A stretch of 45,016 nt of DNA from Planctomycetota bacterium (GTDB lineage Bacteria; Planctomycetota; Planctomycetia; Pirellulales; Lacipirellulaceae): assembly GCA_039190745.1 (NCBI GenBank), contig JBCCXZ010000028.1, forward strand, positions 1-45,016, given 5' to 3'. The notes beneath the pieces are model-generated. The model ran no database searches. It had not been told where the DNA came from and saw only the letters and a program-made list of their open reading frames with translations. Position numbers and translations under genes: made by a program. This document shows positions 25,856 to 36,592 of this stretch, one piece after another; the first letter of the stretch is position 1, and each line of letters starts with the position of its first letter.

Positions 25856-27022
25856 TTGGCGGCGCCCCTCAGCGAGTACATCCAGAACAGCGCGATCGCG
25901 TTCCGCGGCTACAACGTCACGAACCTCGGACGCACGAAAGAACTCTTGCGGGTCGAAGCTTACGGCCCGATCCTCCAAGAGGAACTCGCCCGGTTCTCGG
26001 CCATCTGCACCGGGCAGACTGCCGGCAAGGTCGACCTCGAGCGACGCGTGCTCGAAGACGATGAACCCGGCCTCAAATTCTACTCAGAGTCGATCGCCCT
26101 GGTCGTGGCGGTCGAGGTTGCTCAACTCCGTCTGCTCTCGGAGGTTCACGGAGTCGACCACGGCCAAGCACGCCACTACATGGGCTACAGCCTGGGAGAG
26201 TTGACCGCCCTAGGCGCCGCCGGCGTTTTTGATGTTGGGCAACTACTCCGCGTTCCATTGGAACTAGCCCACGACTGCGCGGAGCTGGCAGACAGCGCGA
26301 CAATGGGGGTCCTCTTTTCACGCGGCCCCGCGATCGGTGAAGAAGAGATCGCGGGGCTGTGCCGCGAGGTGACCGCTCAAGGCAGCGGAACGATTGGCGT
26401 CTCTGCCGTTCTCTCTCCCAACACGTACCTCTTAATCGGGCAGGGCGACACACTCGACCGCTTCAAAACCGCGATGCGTGGCGTGCTGCCCCAGTGTACG
26501 CACCTCCGCAAGAACGACCATCGGTGGCCGCCCCTCCACACGCCGATCGTGCGTCAGATTAACGTGCCGGACCGCGCCTCGGTTCTGCTTGAGAAGGTGG
26601 TCCGTAGCAGCACCCCGTCCAACCCTAGCGTGCTGTCACTCGTCACCGGGAAACCCTGCTACACAGACCACCGCTCCCACGACGTCCTCCGCATGTGGAC
26701 CGACCATCCCCAACGTCTCTGGGACGGCGTGTACGAAACGCTCGCCGCGGGCGTCGGCGCCGTGATCCACGTAGGGCCAGCCCCAAACGTGATCCCCAGC
26801 ACGTTCAACCGGCTGGCCGACAACGTCTCTCAGCAAGTCAACGATGGCTCTTGGAAGGGCCTGGGCATGCGCGCCGTCTCGGGCATTGCTCACAGGCCTT
26901 GGCTGGCGGCCATCACACCCACGCGCGCTGCCTTGCTACGCGCACCCGCCGTACGCCAGATAATCCTGGAAGACTGGCTAATCGAGGCCGCCCGCGACAA
27001 AGATTCCCTCCCGGCCGCGTGA
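25856..27022 (+). CDS. FabD-like stand-alone acyltransferase (atypical)
   Basis: Nucleophile elbow GYSLGE, catalytic His region PPLHT, HVGP motif. It deviates from canonical FabD (see findings). Confidence 0.75.
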   Translation: MAAPLSEYIQNSAIAFRGYNVTNLGRTKELLRVEAYGPILQEELARFSAICTGQTAGKVDLERRVLEDDEPGLKFYSESIALVVAVEVAQLRLLSEVHGVDHGQARHYMGYSLGELTALGAAGVFDVGQLLRVPLELAHDCAELADSATMGVLFSRGPAIGEEEIAGLCREVTAQGSGTIGVSAVLSPNTYLLIGQGDTLDRFKTAMRGVLPQCTHLRKNDHRWPPLHTPIVRQINVPDRASVLLEKVVRSSTPSNPSVLSLVTGKPCYTDHRSHDVLRMWTDHPQRLWDGVYETLAAGVGAVIHVGPAPNVIPSTFNRLADNVSQQVNDGSWKGLGMRAVSGIAHRPWLAAITPTRAALLRAPAVRQIILEDWLIEAARDKDSLPAA

Positions 27023-27307
27023 AGGTTGTATGAAAAACCTTGACGCAGAACGGCATCTCCGGCCATAACTTTCCAGTTGATGCCGATACGCTCTGCGACC
27101 TGGGGATCGCGAGGGCGCCGGCAAGCCGAAACGGGTCGCCTGCCCGCGTTTCGTCAACTTCTTTTCCGGCATGCGAACTCGACGCCTCTGCACTCAAGCG
27201 TGCTCACTGGAGCACGCCGATGTACTCGTCCGCGACCGGACCGGTACGCGCGTGAATCGACGGTTCTCTGTGATTGCTCGACAGTTCTACGCAGGAGGAA
27301 TACAAGC

Positions 27308-28849
27308 ATGAGACAATGGCATTGTTGGGGAGTTCTTGCGTTCTGTGCCAGCTTTGCTTTGGTCACGGCCAATAACACCCAGGCCCAACCGACTTACTCG
27401 ATCGACTTTCAAGGGCCGACAGCGTCGCCGCTCGGCCCGAGCGTCTCGGACGCCGATATCCTGACCCCCGCCGGCGCGGGCGTCGCCCCTCCACCGGCCG
27501 TGGTCATACCAGCGGGCCCCGGCTTTGGGACTCTAGGAATCACCGGTGTGGGGATCCATGAGGGGCGAGAGCTAGACGCCCTATCCTATGGCCTCGATGG
27601 GCGGTTCTTCCGCGATGAGTTTGTTGCCCTGCCGCTATTCCCTGAGGAGTCTGAGCGTCAGAGTTGGACATTCTCCGTAGACGAATTCGCCTCGGGAATC
27701 CCTAACCCGTCTCCGTCGGTCTTCACGGAGGGGGCAACCGGTGCGGGTGAGGCCTCTGCAGACGTCTTCCGTGCCACGACACTGCCCGGCGGCCTACCGT
27801 TCGTGCCGCTGCCCCCGGGCGCCAACACGGGAGTGTTTGACGGAAACGGCGGGGCAACCCCATTCGCGGCTCCCGGCCTGAATCTGGTCGAGCCGAACAC
27901 GCCCACGCTGTCTTCGCTGCCGGATCAAGGAGACAACCTCGACGCTTGGGACATCGATACCCCCGTGTTTCGCTTCGAACTGGCAACCACGGTCTACTAC
28001 TCACTCGATTCGTCCTACGGCGACCCCTTGGAGACCTTCCCAGCAAACACCGGGACGGCAGTTGCGAACGGGTTCGTCGGAGGCGATGTCTTGGTCACCG
28101 ACACAATCGCTCCCGTGCCGACCCCCATGCTCTACGCTGATTCGCGGCTGTTGGGGCTCAACGGCGGTGTCTTCAACCCCGATGTGCAAGCCGAAGACGG
28201 CGACGACCTCGACGCGCTCGTCCTTTGGGAAAACGGCGACGGCGTTTACAGCCCAACAACCGGCCCCTACAGCTGGGTCGATGGCGAGACGGATATGCTG
28301 CTGTACTCCGTTCGGCGCAACTCCTCGATCGTGATTACGCCCACCCTCGACGCACTCGGATCGGGTCTGGAAATCACCGAGGGCGATATCCTAATCCCCG
28401 TCGAGACCGCGCCGGGCGTGTTTGAACCGGGCATCTTCATCAATGCCGAAGCCTTAGGGCTCAGCACGGTCCGTTCCGGGAGCGGGACGCCCTACCCATT
28501 CCCGAACCCTCGGTTCGAGGGGCAAGAAATCTGGGACGACGACCTCGACGGCTTGGATGTCGAGGTGCTCGATTTAACAGCCGACGCCGACGGGGACGGG
28601 GATGTCGACGTGGCCGACGTGCTGGCGTGGCAGCGCGGCTTCGGGAGCGTGCCGCCGCCTGTCCCGGGCGTCCCCGACGGGAACTTCGACTTCGACCTCG
28701 ATGTCGATGGCGACGACTTGTCAGTCTGGACCAGCCAGTTCGGGCTCGGCGCTCTCCCGGTCGCCGCGACGACGCCAGTGCCTGAGCCCGCTGTTTGGGC
28801 GCTGGCAAGCACGCTGCTGCTGGCCGCTTCCGCGGCCCGCCGTCGCTAG
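27308..28849 (+). CDS. PEP-CTERM surface protein with Asp-rich repeats and a dockerin-like Ca-binding module
   Basis: Signal peptide and RBS AGGAGG; DADGDGDVDVADV and GNFDFDLDVDGDDL loops; C-terminal VPEP, TM segment and RRR. Confidence 0.88.
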   Translation: MRQWHCWGVLAFCASFALVTANNTQAQPTYSIDFQGPTASPLGPSVSDADILTPAGAGVAPPPAVVIPAGPGFGTLGITGVGIHEGRELDALSYGLDGRFFRDEFVALPLFPEESERQSWTFSVDEFASGIPNPSPSVFTEGATGAGEASADVFRATTLPGGLPFVPLPPGANTGVFDGNGGATPFAAPGLNLVEPNTPTLSSLPDQGDNLDAWDIDTPVFRFELATTVYYSLDSSYGDPLETFPANTGTAVANGFVGGDVLVTDTIAPVPTPMLYADSRLLGLNGGVFNPDVQAEDGDDLDALVLWENGDGVYSPTTGPYSWVDGETDMLLYSVRRNSSIVITPTLDALGSGLEITEGDILIPVETAPGVFEPGIFINAEALGLSTVRSGSGTPYPFPNPRFEGQEIWDDDLDGLDVEVLDLTADADGDGDVDVADVLAWQRGFGSVPPPVPGVPDGNFDFDLDVDGDDLSVWTSQFGLGALPVAATTPVPEPAVWALASTLLLAASAARRR

Positions 28850-30688: not shown

Positions 30689-31477
30689 ATGCCGTCTTCG
30701 TCAAAGCCACCTGAGACCGACGCCTGGGCAGTGGTTACGGGCAGCAGCTCGGGCATCGGTCGAGCAACAGCGGTCGCCCTCGCCCAGTCCGGCTGGAACG
30801 TCTCAATCCACGCCCGCCAAAACAACGGCGGGCTTGAAGAGACGTCGGCGGCGATTCGATCCCACGGCGTCGCCTGCGATTCGATCTTGTGCGACATCGC
30901 CAAGAGCGACGACTGTGATGCCCTCGTGGACCAGGCCTTCCGCCGCGGCCCCGTGCGGGCATGGTTCAACAACGCCGGCGCCGATGTGCTCACAGGTCAC
31001 GCCGCGGACTGGGATTTTGATGCCAAGCTCCAACAACTCTGGCGGGTCGACGTACTCGGGACCATCCGGCTCAGCCGCCTCGTGGGCGATCGCATGAAAA
31101 CCCAAGGCGGCGGCGTGATCCTCAATATGGGTTGGGACCAGGCCGAAACCGGCATGGCCGGCGACAGCGGCGAATACTTTGCGGCCGCCAAGGGAGCCGT
31201 CATGTCGTTCTCTCGGAGCTTAGCCCGTTCGCTCGCTCCGACCGTCCGCGTCAACTGCCTCGCCCCCGGCTGGATACGCACCGCTTGGTCGGGTGAAGCC
31301 TCAGGCTACTGGCTCGAGCGGGGCCGGACCGAGTCCCAACTCGACCGTTGGGGGACTCCCGAGGATGTTGCAGCCGCCGCCGTCTTCCTGGCGTCTGACC
31401 AAGCGTCGTTCATCCACGGGCAAACCATACGCGTCAACGGCGGGTGGCGGGGCGCAGCGACCGCTCGGGAGCCCTAG
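30689..31477 (+). CDS. Short-chain dehydrogenase/reductase with a non-canonical active site; first gene of the H4MPT operon
   Basis: TGSSSGIG, NNAG, VRVNCLAPGWIRT. The active-site segment reads EYFAAAK. Confidence 0.88.
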   Translation: MPSSSKPPETDAWAVVTGSSSGIGRATAVALAQSGWNVSIHARQNNGGLEETSAAIRSHGVACDSILCDIAKSDDCDALVDQAFRRGPVRAWFNNAGADVLTGHAADWDFDAKLQQLWRVDVLGTIRLSRLVGDRMKTQGGGVILNMGWDQAETGMAGDSGEYFAAAKGAVMSFSRSLARSLAPTVRVNCLAPGWIRTAWSGEASGYWLERGRTESQLDRWGTPEDVAAAAVFLASDQASFIHGQTIRVNGGWRGAATAREP

Positions 31478-32914
31478 GTGAACCAGCGGGAACACATCCA
31501 CTTCGTCACCGGTAGGCTGGCAGAACGCGGCCTGCGGCAAGTGCTCGAACCGCTCGCGGCCGAGGCCGGGTTCGATTTTTCGTTGCAGGTGATGCCCATC
31601 ACCGTGGCGGCGTTGATGACCCCCGAGTGGATCGCCCGACGACTCGAACTCCCCCCCGACGCCACCCGTCTCATCCTCCCCGGCTATTGCGACCGCGACC
31701 TCCAGCCGCTGAACGAACGGGCCTCCGTCCCCGTCGAGATCGGTCCACGCGACTTCCGCAGGCTGCCGCAACACTTCTCTCGCGAACCCCAGCCCAGCGA
31801 ATACGGCGCGTGGGATATTGAGATCATCGCCGAGATCAACCACTGCCCGCGGCTGCCGCTCGACGAGATCCTGGCTGTCGCGAATCGCTACTCCTCCGCT
31901 GGGGCAGACATCATCGATGTCGGCTGCGAGCCGGGCGACGCATGGCCCGGACTCGGCGACGCCGTCCGGGCACTCGTCGACGCCGGGCATGCTGTGTCGG
32001 TCGACAGCATGAACCCCCGAGAGATCGCCGATGCGGCCCACGCCGGAGCGAGCCTGGTGCTCAGCGTCAACTCGTCCAACCGAGAAGCGGCACTCGACTG
32101 GGGCCTCGAAGCCGTGGTCGTGCCGGACGACCCCAAGACGCTCACCGGCTTGGACGACACGATCGAACTGCTCGCTAAGAACTCGGTCCCGCTGCGGATT
32201 GACCCGATCCTCGAGCCGATCGGCTTCGGCTTCGCCCAGAGCCTCGGGCGGTACCTGTCGGTACGCCAACGCTACCCCGACGCAGAAATGATGATGGGCG
32301 TCGGCAACCTTACCGAGCTCACCGACGCCGATTCGGCCGGCATCAACACGCTGCTCCTAGGCTTCTGCCAGGAAACGGGCATCCGCAGCATCCTCACGAC
32401 CGAGGTCATCAACTGGGCACGAACAAGCGTCCAAGAGTGCGACCGTGCACGCCGCCTAGTCTACCACGCCGCAAACCAGGGCGTTCCACCGAAGCACCTC
32501 GAGCCGGGGCTGCTCATGCTCCGCGACGCCGCAGTCACCGAACCCACAACAACCGAGATCGCAGCGCTCGCCGCAGACGTACGCGACAACAACTATCGGG
32601 TCTTCACCTCGGGGGGAGAAGTCCACCTTGTCGGCGGCGGGCTGCATCTCCACGACCAAGACCCGTTCGCCGTCATGGAGGCCCTCCGCCATTCCGGCCC
32701 CGACGGGGCCCTGCCCAAGAACCTTGACGCCGGACACGCTTTCTACCTCGGCTACGAGGCGTGCAAAGCGGCCACGGCCATCACGCTCGGCAAGCAGTAC
32801 GAGCAAGACGAGGCACTCGATTGGGGACTCGCAACCCGGCCAGAATCGCGGCGCCTGCTCCGCAAGCGCGGCCTCGGAAGGAAGGGCGACGGAGCGAAGG
32901 GGGGCGACTCGTGA
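31478..32914 (+). CDS. Dihydropteroate synthase-like methanopterin biosynthesis protein (Orf20/DUF6513-DUF4346 type)
   Basis: HFVTGRLAE, ITVAALMT, pterin-binding barrel GADIIDVGC..SVDS, MMGVGNLTELTDADSAG, HAFYLGYE..KA...LGKQYEQDEALDWG. Confidence 0.85.
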   Translation: MNQREHIHFVTGRLAERGLRQVLEPLAAEAGFDFSLQVMPITVAALMTPEWIARRLELPPDATRLILPGYCDRDLQPLNERASVPVEIGPRDFRRLPQHFSREPQPSEYGAWDIEIIAEINHCPRLPLDEILAVANRYSSAGADIIDVGCEPGDAWPGLGDAVRALVDAGHAVSVDSMNPREIADAAHAGASLVLSVNSSNREAALDWGLEAVVVPDDPKTLTGLDDTIELLAKNSVPLRIDPILEPIGFGFAQSLGRYLSVRQRYPDAEMMMGVGNLTELTDADSAGINTLLLGFCQETGIRSILTTEVINWARTSVQECDRARRLVYHAANQGVPPKHLEPGLLMLRDAAVTEPTTTEIAALAADVRDNNYRVFTSGGEVHLVGGGLHLHDQDPFAVMEALRHSGPDGALPKNLDAGHAFYLGYEACKAATAITLGKQYEQDEALDWGLATRPESRRLLRKRGLGRKGDGAKGGDS

Positions 32915-34317
32915 ACGACCCCTTTCCGCTCGTCGAAGAGCTGCCTTCGAGGCTCACGCCCGTCGATGCATTCGTCAGGCTGTCCACATTGCCGCGTATC
33001 CAGTTCCTGGACAGCGCGATGCCAGACCCTGAGATCGGCCGGTACAGCTTCGTGGTCGCCGATCCATTCCAATGGCATCGATTCGACGAGCCCCGGCTGG
33101 ATTCACTTGCTGCTGTGGAAGCCTGTTGGCGCAACTTCGAGCCGCACACCACGGCCGTAGAAGACCTGCCCCCGCTGCAGGGAGGAGTCGTCGGCGTTCT
33201 CGGCTACGAGTTCGGCCGAGCCATCGAGCCGCACCAACCTGCGCGGGTCAACGACTTTCCCTTCCCAGCACTCGCCTGCGGATTCTACGACACGGTTATC
33301 GCATTCGACCATGAGAAAGGCCGCTCATGGATCGTGTCTCAAGGGTTCCCTGAACTCGATTCCGAAAGGCGTGCCGAACGTGCCGCTCAACGGATCGCTA
33401 CTTTCCGAGAGCTTCTGACAACGCGCCCCAGGTCGAGACCGACACCGTCATCTCCCGCATACAGGACCGATCCGGAGTGCAACGTCACGCTGGGCAACCA
33501 CGCCGTCTCCAGCAGCCTCTCAGAGGAGGACTACCTCGCGATGGTCGAGCGGGGCGTCGAGCACATCCGCAACGGGGACGTGTTCCAGGTCAACCTTGCG
33601 CAGAGGCTCCTCACCCCCGCCGCGGACGACGCGGTCTCGATGTACCTGCGGCTCCGAGAACGAAACCCCGCGCCGTACGCCGCTTTTGCCGACCTCGGCG
33701 ATATCCAAGTCGCGAGCGCGTCTCCAGAGTCGTTCCTCCGACTGGACGGTAGCACAGTTGAAACCCGCCCTATCAAAGGAACGCGGAGCCGGATCGGGCG
33801 CCCGGAAGCCGACCTCTTTTCGGGGACCGACCTCTCGGTCAGCGAGAAAGACCGGGCCGAGAACGTCATGATCGTCGACCTCCTCCGCAACGACCTCTCC
33901 CGGACGTGCGTCCCCGAGAGCATCCACGTCCCCAGGCTCTGCGGGCTGGAGCAGTACGCCTTCGTCCAGCACCTAGTCTCGACGGTGCGGGGCGAACTCC
34001 GGCCGGGGCAGACGCCGTTCGACCTGCTGCGGACCTGCTTCCCCGGCGGCTCGATCACCGGGGCCCCCAAGCCGCGGGCGATGCAGATCATCGCCCAACT
34101 CGAACCAACACGCCGAGGGGCTTACTGCGGCTCGCTCTTCTACCTAGGCTTTAACGGTCGGATGGACAGCAGTATCCTCATCCGAACGCTCACCGCGAGC
34201 GGCGGCTGGTGGCAGCTCCCCGCCGGCGGCGGGATCGTCTCTCAATCCGACCCCCGCGACGAGTACCGAGAAACCTGGCACAAGGCTCGAGGGCTGCTCG
34301 AATCACTAAAGCCCTGA
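32911..34317 (+). CDS. pabB: Aminodeoxychorismate synthase component I
   Basis: RPIKGT (the Lys is typical of PabB, whereas TrpE has PIAGT), EKDRAENVMIVDLLRNDL, FPGGSITGAPK. GTGA overlap with the orf20-like gene; pterin-pathway context. Confidence 0.88.
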   Translation: MNDPFPLVEELPSRLTPVDAFVRLSTLPRIQFLDSAMPDPEIGRYSFVVADPFQWHRFDEPRLDSLAAVEACWRNFEPHTTAVEDLPPLQGGVVGVLGYEFGRAIEPHQPARVNDFPFPALACGFYDTVIAFDHEKGRSWIVSQGFPELDSERRAERAAQRIATFRELLTTRPRSRPTPSSPAYRTDPECNVTLGNHAVSSSLSEEDYLAMVERGVEHIRNGDVFQVNLAQRLLTPAADDAVSMYLRLRERNPAPYAAFADLGDIQVASASPESFLRLDGSTVETRPIKGTRSRIGRPEADLFSGTDLSVSEKDRAENVMIVDLLRNDLSRTCVPESIHVPRLCGLEQYAFVQHLVSTVRGELRPGQTPFDLLRTCFPGGSITGAPKPRAMQIIAQLEPTRRGAYCGSLFYLGFNGRMDSSILIRTLTASGGWWQLPAGGGIVSQSDPRDEYRETWHKARGLLESLKP

Positions 34318-34326
34318 CCGCGATAC

Positions 34327-34992
34327 ATGATCCTGCTGATCGACAACTACGACAGCTTCGTGTTCAACCTTGCCCGCTATTTGCAGAAGCTGGGGCAAGA
34401 GGTGGCCGTCGTCCGGAACGACGCGGTTGATCTCGGCGCCATAGAGAGCAAGCCTCCGGCCGCAATCGTGCTCTCTCCCGGGCCGGGTGCCCCGCGGGAT
34501 GCCGGGTCCTCGCTAGAACTCGTCCGGCGTCTCGCCCTCGATGTCCCCATCCTCGGGGTTTGTCTCGGGCACCAAACCATCGCCGCTGCCTTCGGAGCCG
34601 CGGTGGTTCGGTCGGGCAACCCGATGCACGGCCGGACCTCCGCCATTGAGCATACCGGTGGCGGCGTCTTCGCGGGCGTCCCCAACCCGGTCACAGCCTG
34701 CCGCTACCACTCACTTATCGTCGAGGAATCGACGCTGCCGCCAGACCTCGTGCCTACGGCATGGGCAACGGACGGGACGCTCATGGCACTACGGCACCGT
34801 TCGCTGCCGCTGGTCGGAGTGCAGTTCCACCCAGAAGCCGTGCTCACCGAACACGGGTACCGCCTGCTACACAACTTTCTGACGATCTCCGGCATCGCGG
34901 TCGCGGCCGAACCCGACCTGCTGCAGTCCTCCGAGGCCGCAGGCTCCGAACGTCGCGAAACGCCTCTCCCGGCCGGGCCCGTCACCTTCTAA
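34327..34992 (+). CDS. pabA: Glutamine amidotransferase, aminodeoxychorismate synthase component II
   Basis: IDNYDSF, SPGPG, GVCLGHQ, RYHSL, QFHPE. Confidence 0.88.
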   Translation: MILLIDNYDSFVFNLARYLQKLGQEVAVVRNDAVDLGAIESKPPAAIVLSPGPGAPRDAGSSLELVRRLALDVPILGVCLGHQTIAAAFGAAVVRSGNPMHGRTSAIEHTGGGVFAGVPNPVTACRYHSLIVEESTLPPDLVPTAWATDGTLMALRHRSLPLVGVQFHPEAVLTEHGYRLLHNFLTISGIAVAAEPDLLQSSEAAGSERRETPLPAGPVTF

Positions 34993-35018
34993 CAACCCCA
35001 CCCAGGCACGCCCCCAAC

Positions 35019-35609
35019 TTGCCAACGATCCTCGAGTGTATCGTCACCACACTGAACGCCGATGGCACGGTGAACGTCGCGCCAATGGGGCCCGAGGTGG
35101 ACGACTCGATGGACCGGGTGGTACTTAAGCCGTTCAAGACCTCGACGACGTATGCCAACGTGTCCCGCACCCGCACCGCAGTAGTCAACGTCACCGACGA
35201 CGTGCTGCTGCTCGCTCAGGCGGCGGTCGGCGCTCTGAAGACCCTGCCCGAGACACGCGCTTGCCCGGGAGCCGAAGGAGCGATGCTTGCCGACGCCTGC
35301 CGTTGGTACGCCCTCCGGTGCGACCACATCGACGACCGTGACGACCGGGTGCGGATCGACACGCGTGTTGTGGCACGAGGACGACTACGAGACTTCTTCG
35401 GGTTCAGCCGCGCCAAGCACGCCGTGGTCGAAGCAGCGATCCTCGCCACACGGGTCCACATGATTCCGCCGGAGGATCTTGCCAATCAGTTGAGCACCCT
35501 GGAGCCTCTGATCGCAAAGACCGGCTCCTCGCGTGAGCACGAGGCGTTTGCGTTGCTGCAGAAATACACGCAGCACTACGCTATAGCCCATAAGGGCGGC
35601 GGGCGATGA
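35019..35609 (+). CDS. DUF447 family methanopterin biosynthesis protein (Orf22-like)
   Basis: ILECIVTT..DG..NVAPMG, PFKTSTTY.N, GFSRAKHAVVEAAILATR..M, LIAKTG. The TTG start is inferred; there is no in-frame ATG before ILEC. Confidence 0.82.
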   Translation: MPTILECIVTTLNADGTVNVAPMGPEVDDSMDRVVLKPFKTSTTYANVSRTRTAVVNVTDDVLLLAQAAVGALKTLPETRACPGAEGAMLADACRWYALRCDHIDDRDDRVRIDTRVVARGRLRDFFGFSRAKHAVVEAAILATRVHMIPPEDLANQLSTLEPLIAKTGSSREHEAFALLQKYTQHYAIAHKGGGR

Positions 35610-36592
35610 GCACCGATGGACTCGTCGTGTCGGCCCCCGCCCGACTGCACTTCGGGCTGCTCCGCTTCAGCAATCCCAGCGGGCTGAGCTTCGGAGGGTT
35701 AGGGATGATGGTCCGCGACCCCCGCACCGTGGTGCGACTCAGTCGATCCCACAACTGGCAGTTCACCGGACCTTCCGCCAATCTCGCGCTCGCCGCCGCC
35801 AGGCACGCCGTTACCGCCGCCGAGGCCGCTGGCTCCGAGTGTTTCTCGATAGAAATCGCACAAGCCCCGCCACGGCACCGAGGTTTTGGGTCGGGCACTC
35901 AGCTCGCCCTCACACTCACGGCGGGAGTGCTTCGGCTGATGGGACGAGAATGGGAAGACGCCACGACGCTCGCCGCAGCCGCAAACCGAGCCCGCCGAAG
36001 TGCAATCGGCACCCACGGTTTCCTCCACGGCGGGCTGCTCTGGGAACGCGGCCGAGCCCCCGAACAGTCAATCTCCCCACTCGAAACGCGCGTGCTGGTT
36101 CCGGAAGCGTGGAGAGTGCTACTGCTCCAACCTCTCAGTCGAGAAGGGACGCATGGCCCCGCCGAAGCAGCCGTATTCGAGCAGCTGCCTCCGGTGCCAG
36201 CGGATGTGACCGAACGCCTCAAGCACCTGGCAGCTCAAGAGATTCTCCCAGCAGCGGTCGCAGGCGACTTCGCTCGTTTCACGTCCCACCTAGAGGCCTA
36301 CGGTGAGGCGGCGGGCAACTGCTTCTCCAGTGTGCAAGGCGGGCCCTTCGCAAACCAGCGGGTCGCAGACGTTGTGGCCGCCGCACGCGCCGCCGGCGCG
36401 CTGGGCGTCGGCCAGACGTCCTGGGGGCCGACAGTCTTCGCCTTCGCCGAAGACCAAGGGGCCGCGGAGGCGATCGCAGAGCAGCTCACCAGCCAGACCA
36501 CCGACCGATCGTTCGCAATCTCGATCACGAGACCCGACAACCACGGAGCAACGTTCTCGCTGCATGACCTGCCGTCGCGTAACCGTACTTAG
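35606..36592 (+). CDS. mptG: Beta-ribofuranosylaminobenzene 5'-phosphate (beta-RFAP) synthase, GHMP family
   Basis: [40 protein letters not shown] overlap with the DUF447 gene. Confidence 0.87.

Follow-up and report, generated by a model that had tools for sequence, protein, structure and literature searches.

We identified a candidate 7,8-dihydromethanopterin reductase, which would depend on NADPH and add a third fold to the two known for this activity. We put the probability of this reading, which is drawn from sequence, predicted fold, distribution and gene order, at about 0.7. The protein is a Tyr-less SDR of 262 aa, encoded at 30689..31477 on the forward strand of the window, by which we mean the whole stretch of 45,016 nucleotides that was analysed. 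The reading is supported because the SDR gene follows mch, was never found with AfpA in the carriers examined and fills the AfpA gene slot. The SDR family itself is real and is dedicated to the methanopterin (H4MPT) pathway. The proposed reaction would take 7,8-dihydromethanopterin (in bacteria, the dephospho form) to tetrahydromethanopterin, the final step in the synthesis of this one-carbon carrier, and the SDR would thus replace AfpA/DmrB and DmrA in Planctomycetota, in Gemmatimonadota and in part of the Acidobacteriota and Gammaproteobacteria.

Gene context in the source genome

The SDR gene is the first of six operon genes, all on the forward strand. Its TAG stop ends at 31477 and the GTG start of the orf20-like gene is at 31478, so that the 0-bp junction reported in the initial annotation is present. 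The orf20-like gene (31478..32914) encodes a dihydropteroate-synthase-related protein with DUF6513, Pterin_bind and DUF4346 domains and a TIGR00284 match below cut-off. It is followed by genes for a pabB-like aminodeoxychorismate synthase component I (32911..34317; the start is placed at a GTG overlapping the orf20 stop, while the longest ORF begins at 32761), a pabA-like glutamine amidotransferase (34327..34992, from profile matches), a DUF447 protein (34989..35609, start uncertain at about 34989-35034) and an mptG-like beta-RFA-P synthase (35606..36592; NF040726 and TIGR00144, both below cut-off). Judged by gene order, the DUF447 protein is probably the orf19 of the H4MPT literature. Orf22 of that literature is an MfnB homolog (PMC8141765). 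No sigma-70-like promoter was found, and a plasmid search at E 1e-40 gave no match. Two further ORFs of the window were recorded: a FabD-like one at 25856-27022 with weak NCBIfam matches only, and one of 590 aa at 27077-28849 with a PEP-CTERM-like tail at its end and no Pfam match.

The source genome is 95.5% complete and contains matches to mch, orf5, mtd, fae, ftr, fwdC, mptG, a citG-like and a PTPS-like gene, mfnB/D/E/F-like genes, HPPK and folP. Three kinds of reductase have been described for the last step, DmrA, AfpA/DmrB and DmrX, and afpA restores a dmrA mutant (PMC6193120). According to PMC5020050, no Afp has been recognised in the genomes of planctomycetes, and in Methylobacterium DmrA takes its place. 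Profile matches revealed no dmrA- or afpA-type gene among the six operon genes, and domain searches and home-built profiles detected none in the genome. The only DHFR found in it is encoded downstream of thyA, and its two PF02441 flavoproteins are UbiX and CoaC; profiles built from 22 DHFRs and 7 AfpAs gave no further match in it. A PTR1/FolM-type SDR (Arg motif, Asp, Tyr and Lys) at G000:C73:14120-14890 has an in-frame stop mid-gene and is either a pseudogene or an assembly error.

Fold and family

The protein has the features of the classical SDR superfamily: a Rossmann fold, the TGxxxGxG and NNAG motifs and a PF13561 score of 151 bits against a cut-off of 27. Its Pfam matches were confined to the SDR clan, without a PF02441 flavoprotein or PF00186 DHFR domain. 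AlphaFold predicted a classical SDR structure (pLDDT 90.6), to which FabG is nearest. In a fold search the best match was the FabG 4jro (Z 33, rmsd 2.0 Å, 239 residues aligned), and FabG-type chains stood in the top 50; PTR1 was not among the matches listed, which excludes nothing. The names of homologs suggest Pirellulales, and database names of family members are FabG or SDR, as the initial annotation had anticipated for automated pipelines. The family also extends past the four phyla studied, since its member P0263 carries the name of Candidatus Hydrogenisulfobacillus filiaventi (Bacillota).

The SDR nevertheless scored below all 25 NCBIfam cut-offs shown, including those of FabG (TIGR01830, 146 against 297.75 bits required) and TmpR (NF012208, 120 against 325 bits). 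It is 31% identical to E. coli FabG and 21% to E. coli FolM (K-12 reference sequences). The Arg of the Gly-x3-Arg-x-Gly cofactor motif of PTR1 (PMC1618733) would fall at position 22; it is present in FolM and five PTR1-type controls and in none of 71 family members, 70 of which have Gly. A quick tree was made of 87 SDRs, after 7 planctomycete and 10 gemmatimonad rows of the 104 collected had been set aside (L072 and L109 not included). In it, the 54 family members grouped on a branch of their own (SH-aLRT 99), separate from FolM and the five PTR1-type rows. By these sequence comparisons, the SDR is not a PTR1/FolM member but belongs to a separate, tight SDR clade.

Active-site residues

The motifs described initially were found as claimed: Y163-F164-A-A-A-K168, N146-M-G-W149-D150-Q and H41-A-R43. 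Phe at the canonical Tyr position is a family trait, since F164 and K168 occurred in 120/120 close homologs; W149 and D150 were likewise invariant in this set, the best 120 of 7683 homologs at E <= 1e-40 (8000 scored). Tyr163 was considered as a shifted catalytic Tyr and was ruled out, because only two of these 120 have it. We also compared 71 members taken from genomes of three phyla. Residues D99, D121, W149 and K168 were present in all of them and D150 in 69, whereas position 164 was Phe in 58, Tyr in 12 and Leu in one. A divergent subgroup (P0137, P0165, P0166, P0179 and relatives) retains the Tyr in YxxxK and has FFGWDG/WNG at the Ser site.

In the alignment, D121 corresponds to N110 of E. 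coli FabG, W149 to FabG S138 and FolM D139, and F164 to FabG Y151. We take N110, S138 and Y151 to be members of the FabG catalytic tetrad. Aligned in this way, three of the four SDR catalytic positions are rewritten (Asn to Asp121, Ser to Trp149 and Tyr to Phe164) and Lys168 is kept, so the Asn-Ser-Tyr-Lys tetrad of FabG is absent from the family. Two of these points, the replacement of the tetrad Asn by the invariant D121 and the invariance of D99, were overlooked in the initial annotation. It had also placed an Asp in the catalytic-Ser region and likened it to that of PTR1 and FolM. D150 is indeed there, but it is the residue after W149, which holds the position of the FabG Ser and the FolM Asp; the alignment therefore ruled out D150 as the PTR1/FolM Asp. 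With Trp at the Asp position and mostly Phe at the Tyr position, the Asp-Tyr-Lys triad of PTR1/FolM is missing from the aligned sequences. The argument from PTR1 and FolM thus fails as stated, for this reason and because of the missing Arg motif and the separate clade.

The absence of an acid together with an Arg after beta-2 marks a preference for NADPH. None of the 71 members has Asp or Glu at positions 41-43, and 36 have Arg at position 43. NADPH use fits this pattern, and the cofactor of the SDR is probably NADPH.

Co-distribution with mch

We profiled the subfamily against the H4MPT genes in three phylum or class samples and found it almost confined to mch-positive genomes: 65 of 67 carriers had mch (28/28, 24/25 and 13/14). 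In Planctomycetota, the SDR was found in 28 of 251 genomes and mch in the same 28; orf20 was also found in 28, of which 27 were in common with the SDR. Since orf20 lay within 1.5 kb of the SDR in only 12 of the 28 planctomycete loci, the match between SDR and mch is not mere operon linkage. Seventeen of the 28 carriers belong to one family, and kin are not independent.

Among 121 Gemmatimonadota genomes (counts that take in the unpublished genome G310), SDR and mch each occurred in 25, with 24 in common. The exceptions were G364, with the SDR, the operon and mptG and no mch match, and G315, with mch and mptG and no SDR match. Of 301 gammaproteobacterial genomes, 37 had mch and 14 the SDR, 13 of them both; these counts take in the unpublished G412, G490, G635 and G645, three of which are SDR carriers, and G592 was partly searchable. 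Here the SDR has unrelated neighbours, none from the H4MPT pathway. The carrier G460 has its SDR on C4 (L248) and no match to mch, orf20 or mptG; pathway loss, an assembly gap or a second use would each explain it. G240 has orf20 and pabB but no match to mch, mptG or the SDR, and we conclude that the SDR goes with the completed cofactor and not with orf20. In this 99%-complete relative, orf20 adjoins pabB (L257, G240:C1:4272000-4291900) and Orf20 may serve folate synthesis. A loose-pattern scan of a genome collection was dropped as a measure of range, with 8 family members among the 80 loci listed.

AfpA and genomes with neither gene

Two AfpA queries over 80 genomes each returned the same seven gammaproteobacteria, none of them an SDR carrier. 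AfpA was found in none of the 67 SDR carriers examined for it, which comprised 28 planctomycetes, 24 gemmatimonads, 14 gammaproteobacteria and G255, whose gene is partial at a contig end (G374 and G460 left out). All seven afpA genes found lie directly upstream of orf20, which is the position of the SDR in this window. Among the 37 mch-positive gammaproteobacteria, 13 had the SDR, 7 had AfpA, none had both and 17 had neither. Statistically, the exclusion in this sample of 37 is weak (Fisher p = 0.038), and related genomes do not count as independent.

The 17 genomes with neither gene (G388, G423, G478, G494, G499, G520, G525, G550, G577, G581, G593, G598, G614, G620, G635, G648 and G653) mean that the absence of AfpA does not force the assignment to the SDR. 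Fifteen of them have a single DHFR, G598 has two full-length ones and G593 a partial second match. No divergent members of the SDR family were found in five of these genomes. PTR1/FolM-type SDRs were found in 5/5 genomes with neither gene, 4/5 SDR carriers (one at only 35% identity) and 4/5 AfpA genomes; as a complementary third reductase they were ruled uninformative, being common in all three groups. They are the chief weak point of our reading, because the step can apparently be served without SDR or AfpA, perhaps by DHFR or by a PTR1/FolM-type SDR. The 17 genomes may have a further route to H4MPT reduction, or a promiscuous DHFR or FolM.

Gene neighbourhoods and alternative functions

The gene order in Gemmatimonadota is mfnB (divergent), SDR, pterin carbinolamine dehydratase (PCD) and orf20, with orf20 and mfnB each a neighbour in 24 of 25 loci; this cluster recurs at an Acidobacteriota locus. 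In planctomycetes of other classes, the SDR is flanked by PTPS-like and PCD genes. Of 80 loci listed in a motif scan of metagenomes, 77 encode the SDR. A core H4MPT/methanofuran gene lay within 5 kb in 60 of these 77 and was nearby in 30 of the 33 listed loci of at least 5 kb; afpA was within 5 kb in none of the 77 listed. HPPK-SDR fusions with the family motif numbered 3 proteins among 150 representative matches listed, and one fusion cluster has 53 members with Gemmataceae names. Other conserved genes were noted in the H4MPT clusters: a PCD subfamily in three phyla (L064:10810-11163, L259 and L262), a GltD-like FAD oxidoreductase in or beside the ftr/fwdC genes of three genomes (L064:909-2348, L258:15981-17348 and L263:12706-14076), a double EthD protein after mch (L064:4226-5050) and a protein of 900 aa that carries MTHFR and DUF5981 domains and adjoins the PCD-mptG end (L259:15264-17999 and L262:1907-4660).

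PCD directly follows the SDR in 25/25 Gemmatimonadota loci, 7/28 planctomycete loci and 47/77 of the metagenome loci listed. This adjacency also fits a recycling role, in which the SDR would be a quinonoid-dihydropterin reductase that returns oxidised H4MPT together with the neighbouring pcbD, and a DHFR or FolM/PTR1-type SDR would do the biosynthesis; the PTR1/FolM-type SDRs of the 5/5 genomes with neither gene, and of most others tested, are consistent with it. However, PCD is also present in H4MPT clusters without the SDR (G494 and G648) and beside mptG in an afpA-bearing methanotroph (PMC3615186), and for this reason we assign it to the pathway and not to the SDR in particular. The operon in the window has no PCD, and the only one in the source genome is a 37% relative located elsewhere. 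As repair also gives no reason for the AfpA exclusion or the common slot, we regard it as unlikely.

The HPPK fusion and the PTPS-like and orf20 neighbours suggested that the SDR might salvage an early pterin (oxidised 6-hydroxymethylpterin or the like) by reducing it for use by HPPK and Orf20. PTR1 uses the Asp-Tyr-Lys triad for fully oxidised pterins (PMC8996148 and PMC1618733), and this triad is missing here. G240, with orf20 and pabB and without mch, mptG or the SDR, also argues against salvage, which appears quite improbable.

A different, as yet unassigned reduction in the synthesis of H4MPT or methanofuran, for instance of the aminophenyl-ribitol or furan part, would account for the adjacent mfnB (24/25 Gemmatimonadota and 42/77 of the metagenome loci listed), and to our knowledge several bacterial steps of these pathways have no assigned genes. 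The SDR is missing, however, in 24 of the 37 mch-positive gammaproteobacteria, including all seven with AfpA, and it has lost the residues for carbonyl reduction, so we give this explanation very little weight. That it is an ordinary FabG-like ketoreductase in the operon by chance is hardly credible: although the best sequence and structure matches and the database names are FabG, it falls below every NCBIfam cut-off shown (146 versus 298 bits for TIGR01830), its tetrad Asn, Ser and Tyr are replaced, a separate FabG-like gene lies on contig C10, and its distribution follows mch.

Proposed mechanism and significance

As a dihydromethanopterin reductase, the SDR would bind NADPH in its Rossmann fold, where Lys168 would keep the ribose of the nicotinamide in place, and would reduce the N5=C6 imine by hydride transfer to C6. 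The proton would come from water or from an invariant Asp (D99, D121 or D150), not from Tyr, and Trp149 and Phe164 may pack against the pterin. PTR1 uses its Asp-Tyr-Lys triad for the first reduction; in the dihydro-to-tetrahydro step, hydride comes from NADPH and the proton from water (PMC1618733 and PMC8996148). Loss of the Tyr fits a dihydropterin-specialised enzyme, because this second step of PTR1 uses water and not the Asp-Tyr pair. Keeping the Lys, dropping the Tyr and gaining invariant acids could be how a dedicated 7,8-dihydropterin reductase looks. The Tyr kept in 12 of 71 members, G460 without the pathway, G315 without the SDR and the 17 of 37 genomes with neither gene count against this reading.

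The candidate differs from each known system in a particular way. FabG is the nearest in sequence and structure, but the SDR has three of four tetrad residues replaced, lies below the cut-offs and follows mch, not fatty-acid genes. PTR1 and FolM share the SDR fold, NADPH and the Lys and reduce 7,8-dihydropterins to tetrahydropterins; the SDR, unlike them, lacks Gly-x3-Arg-x-Gly, has Trp for Asp and Phe for Tyr, and stands in another clade. AfpA/DmrB and the archaeal DmrX, which are FMN flavoproteins, would share its reaction, and the afpA genes found share its slot directly upstream of orf20 (7/7); their fold is unrelated, the SDR has no flavin motif, and they were never together with it in the genomes tested. 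DmrA of Methylorubrum extorquens would likewise share the reaction and the probable NADPH use. It has a DHFR fold, is NADPH-dependent and contains no flavin (PMC6193120), as opposed to the SDR fold of the candidate.

We found no earlier description of the SDR in the open literature searched, which included passages of PMC13108547, PMC4109929 and PMC2680597. It seems reasonably likely to us that a Tyr-less SDR arose from FabG-like ancestors, independently of PTR1/FolM and with a new Asp/Trp/Phe site, as the reductase of nearly all Planctomycetota and Gemmatimonadota with H4MPT and of about a third of the Gammaproteobacteria that have it, and that the genomes with neither gene point to a fourth, as yet unassigned route.

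The family adds to the SDRs a case in which three of the four catalytic residues are rewritten, and the gene is a near-perfect marker for the H4MPT pathway in these phyla. If our reading is true, a large family now labelled FabG would be re-annotated, and the published pathway hole left by the lack of Afp in planctomycete genomes (PMC5020050) would be filled. The planctomycete and gemmatimonad H4MPT pathways would then be complete, a point relevant to the long-standing question of their role there.
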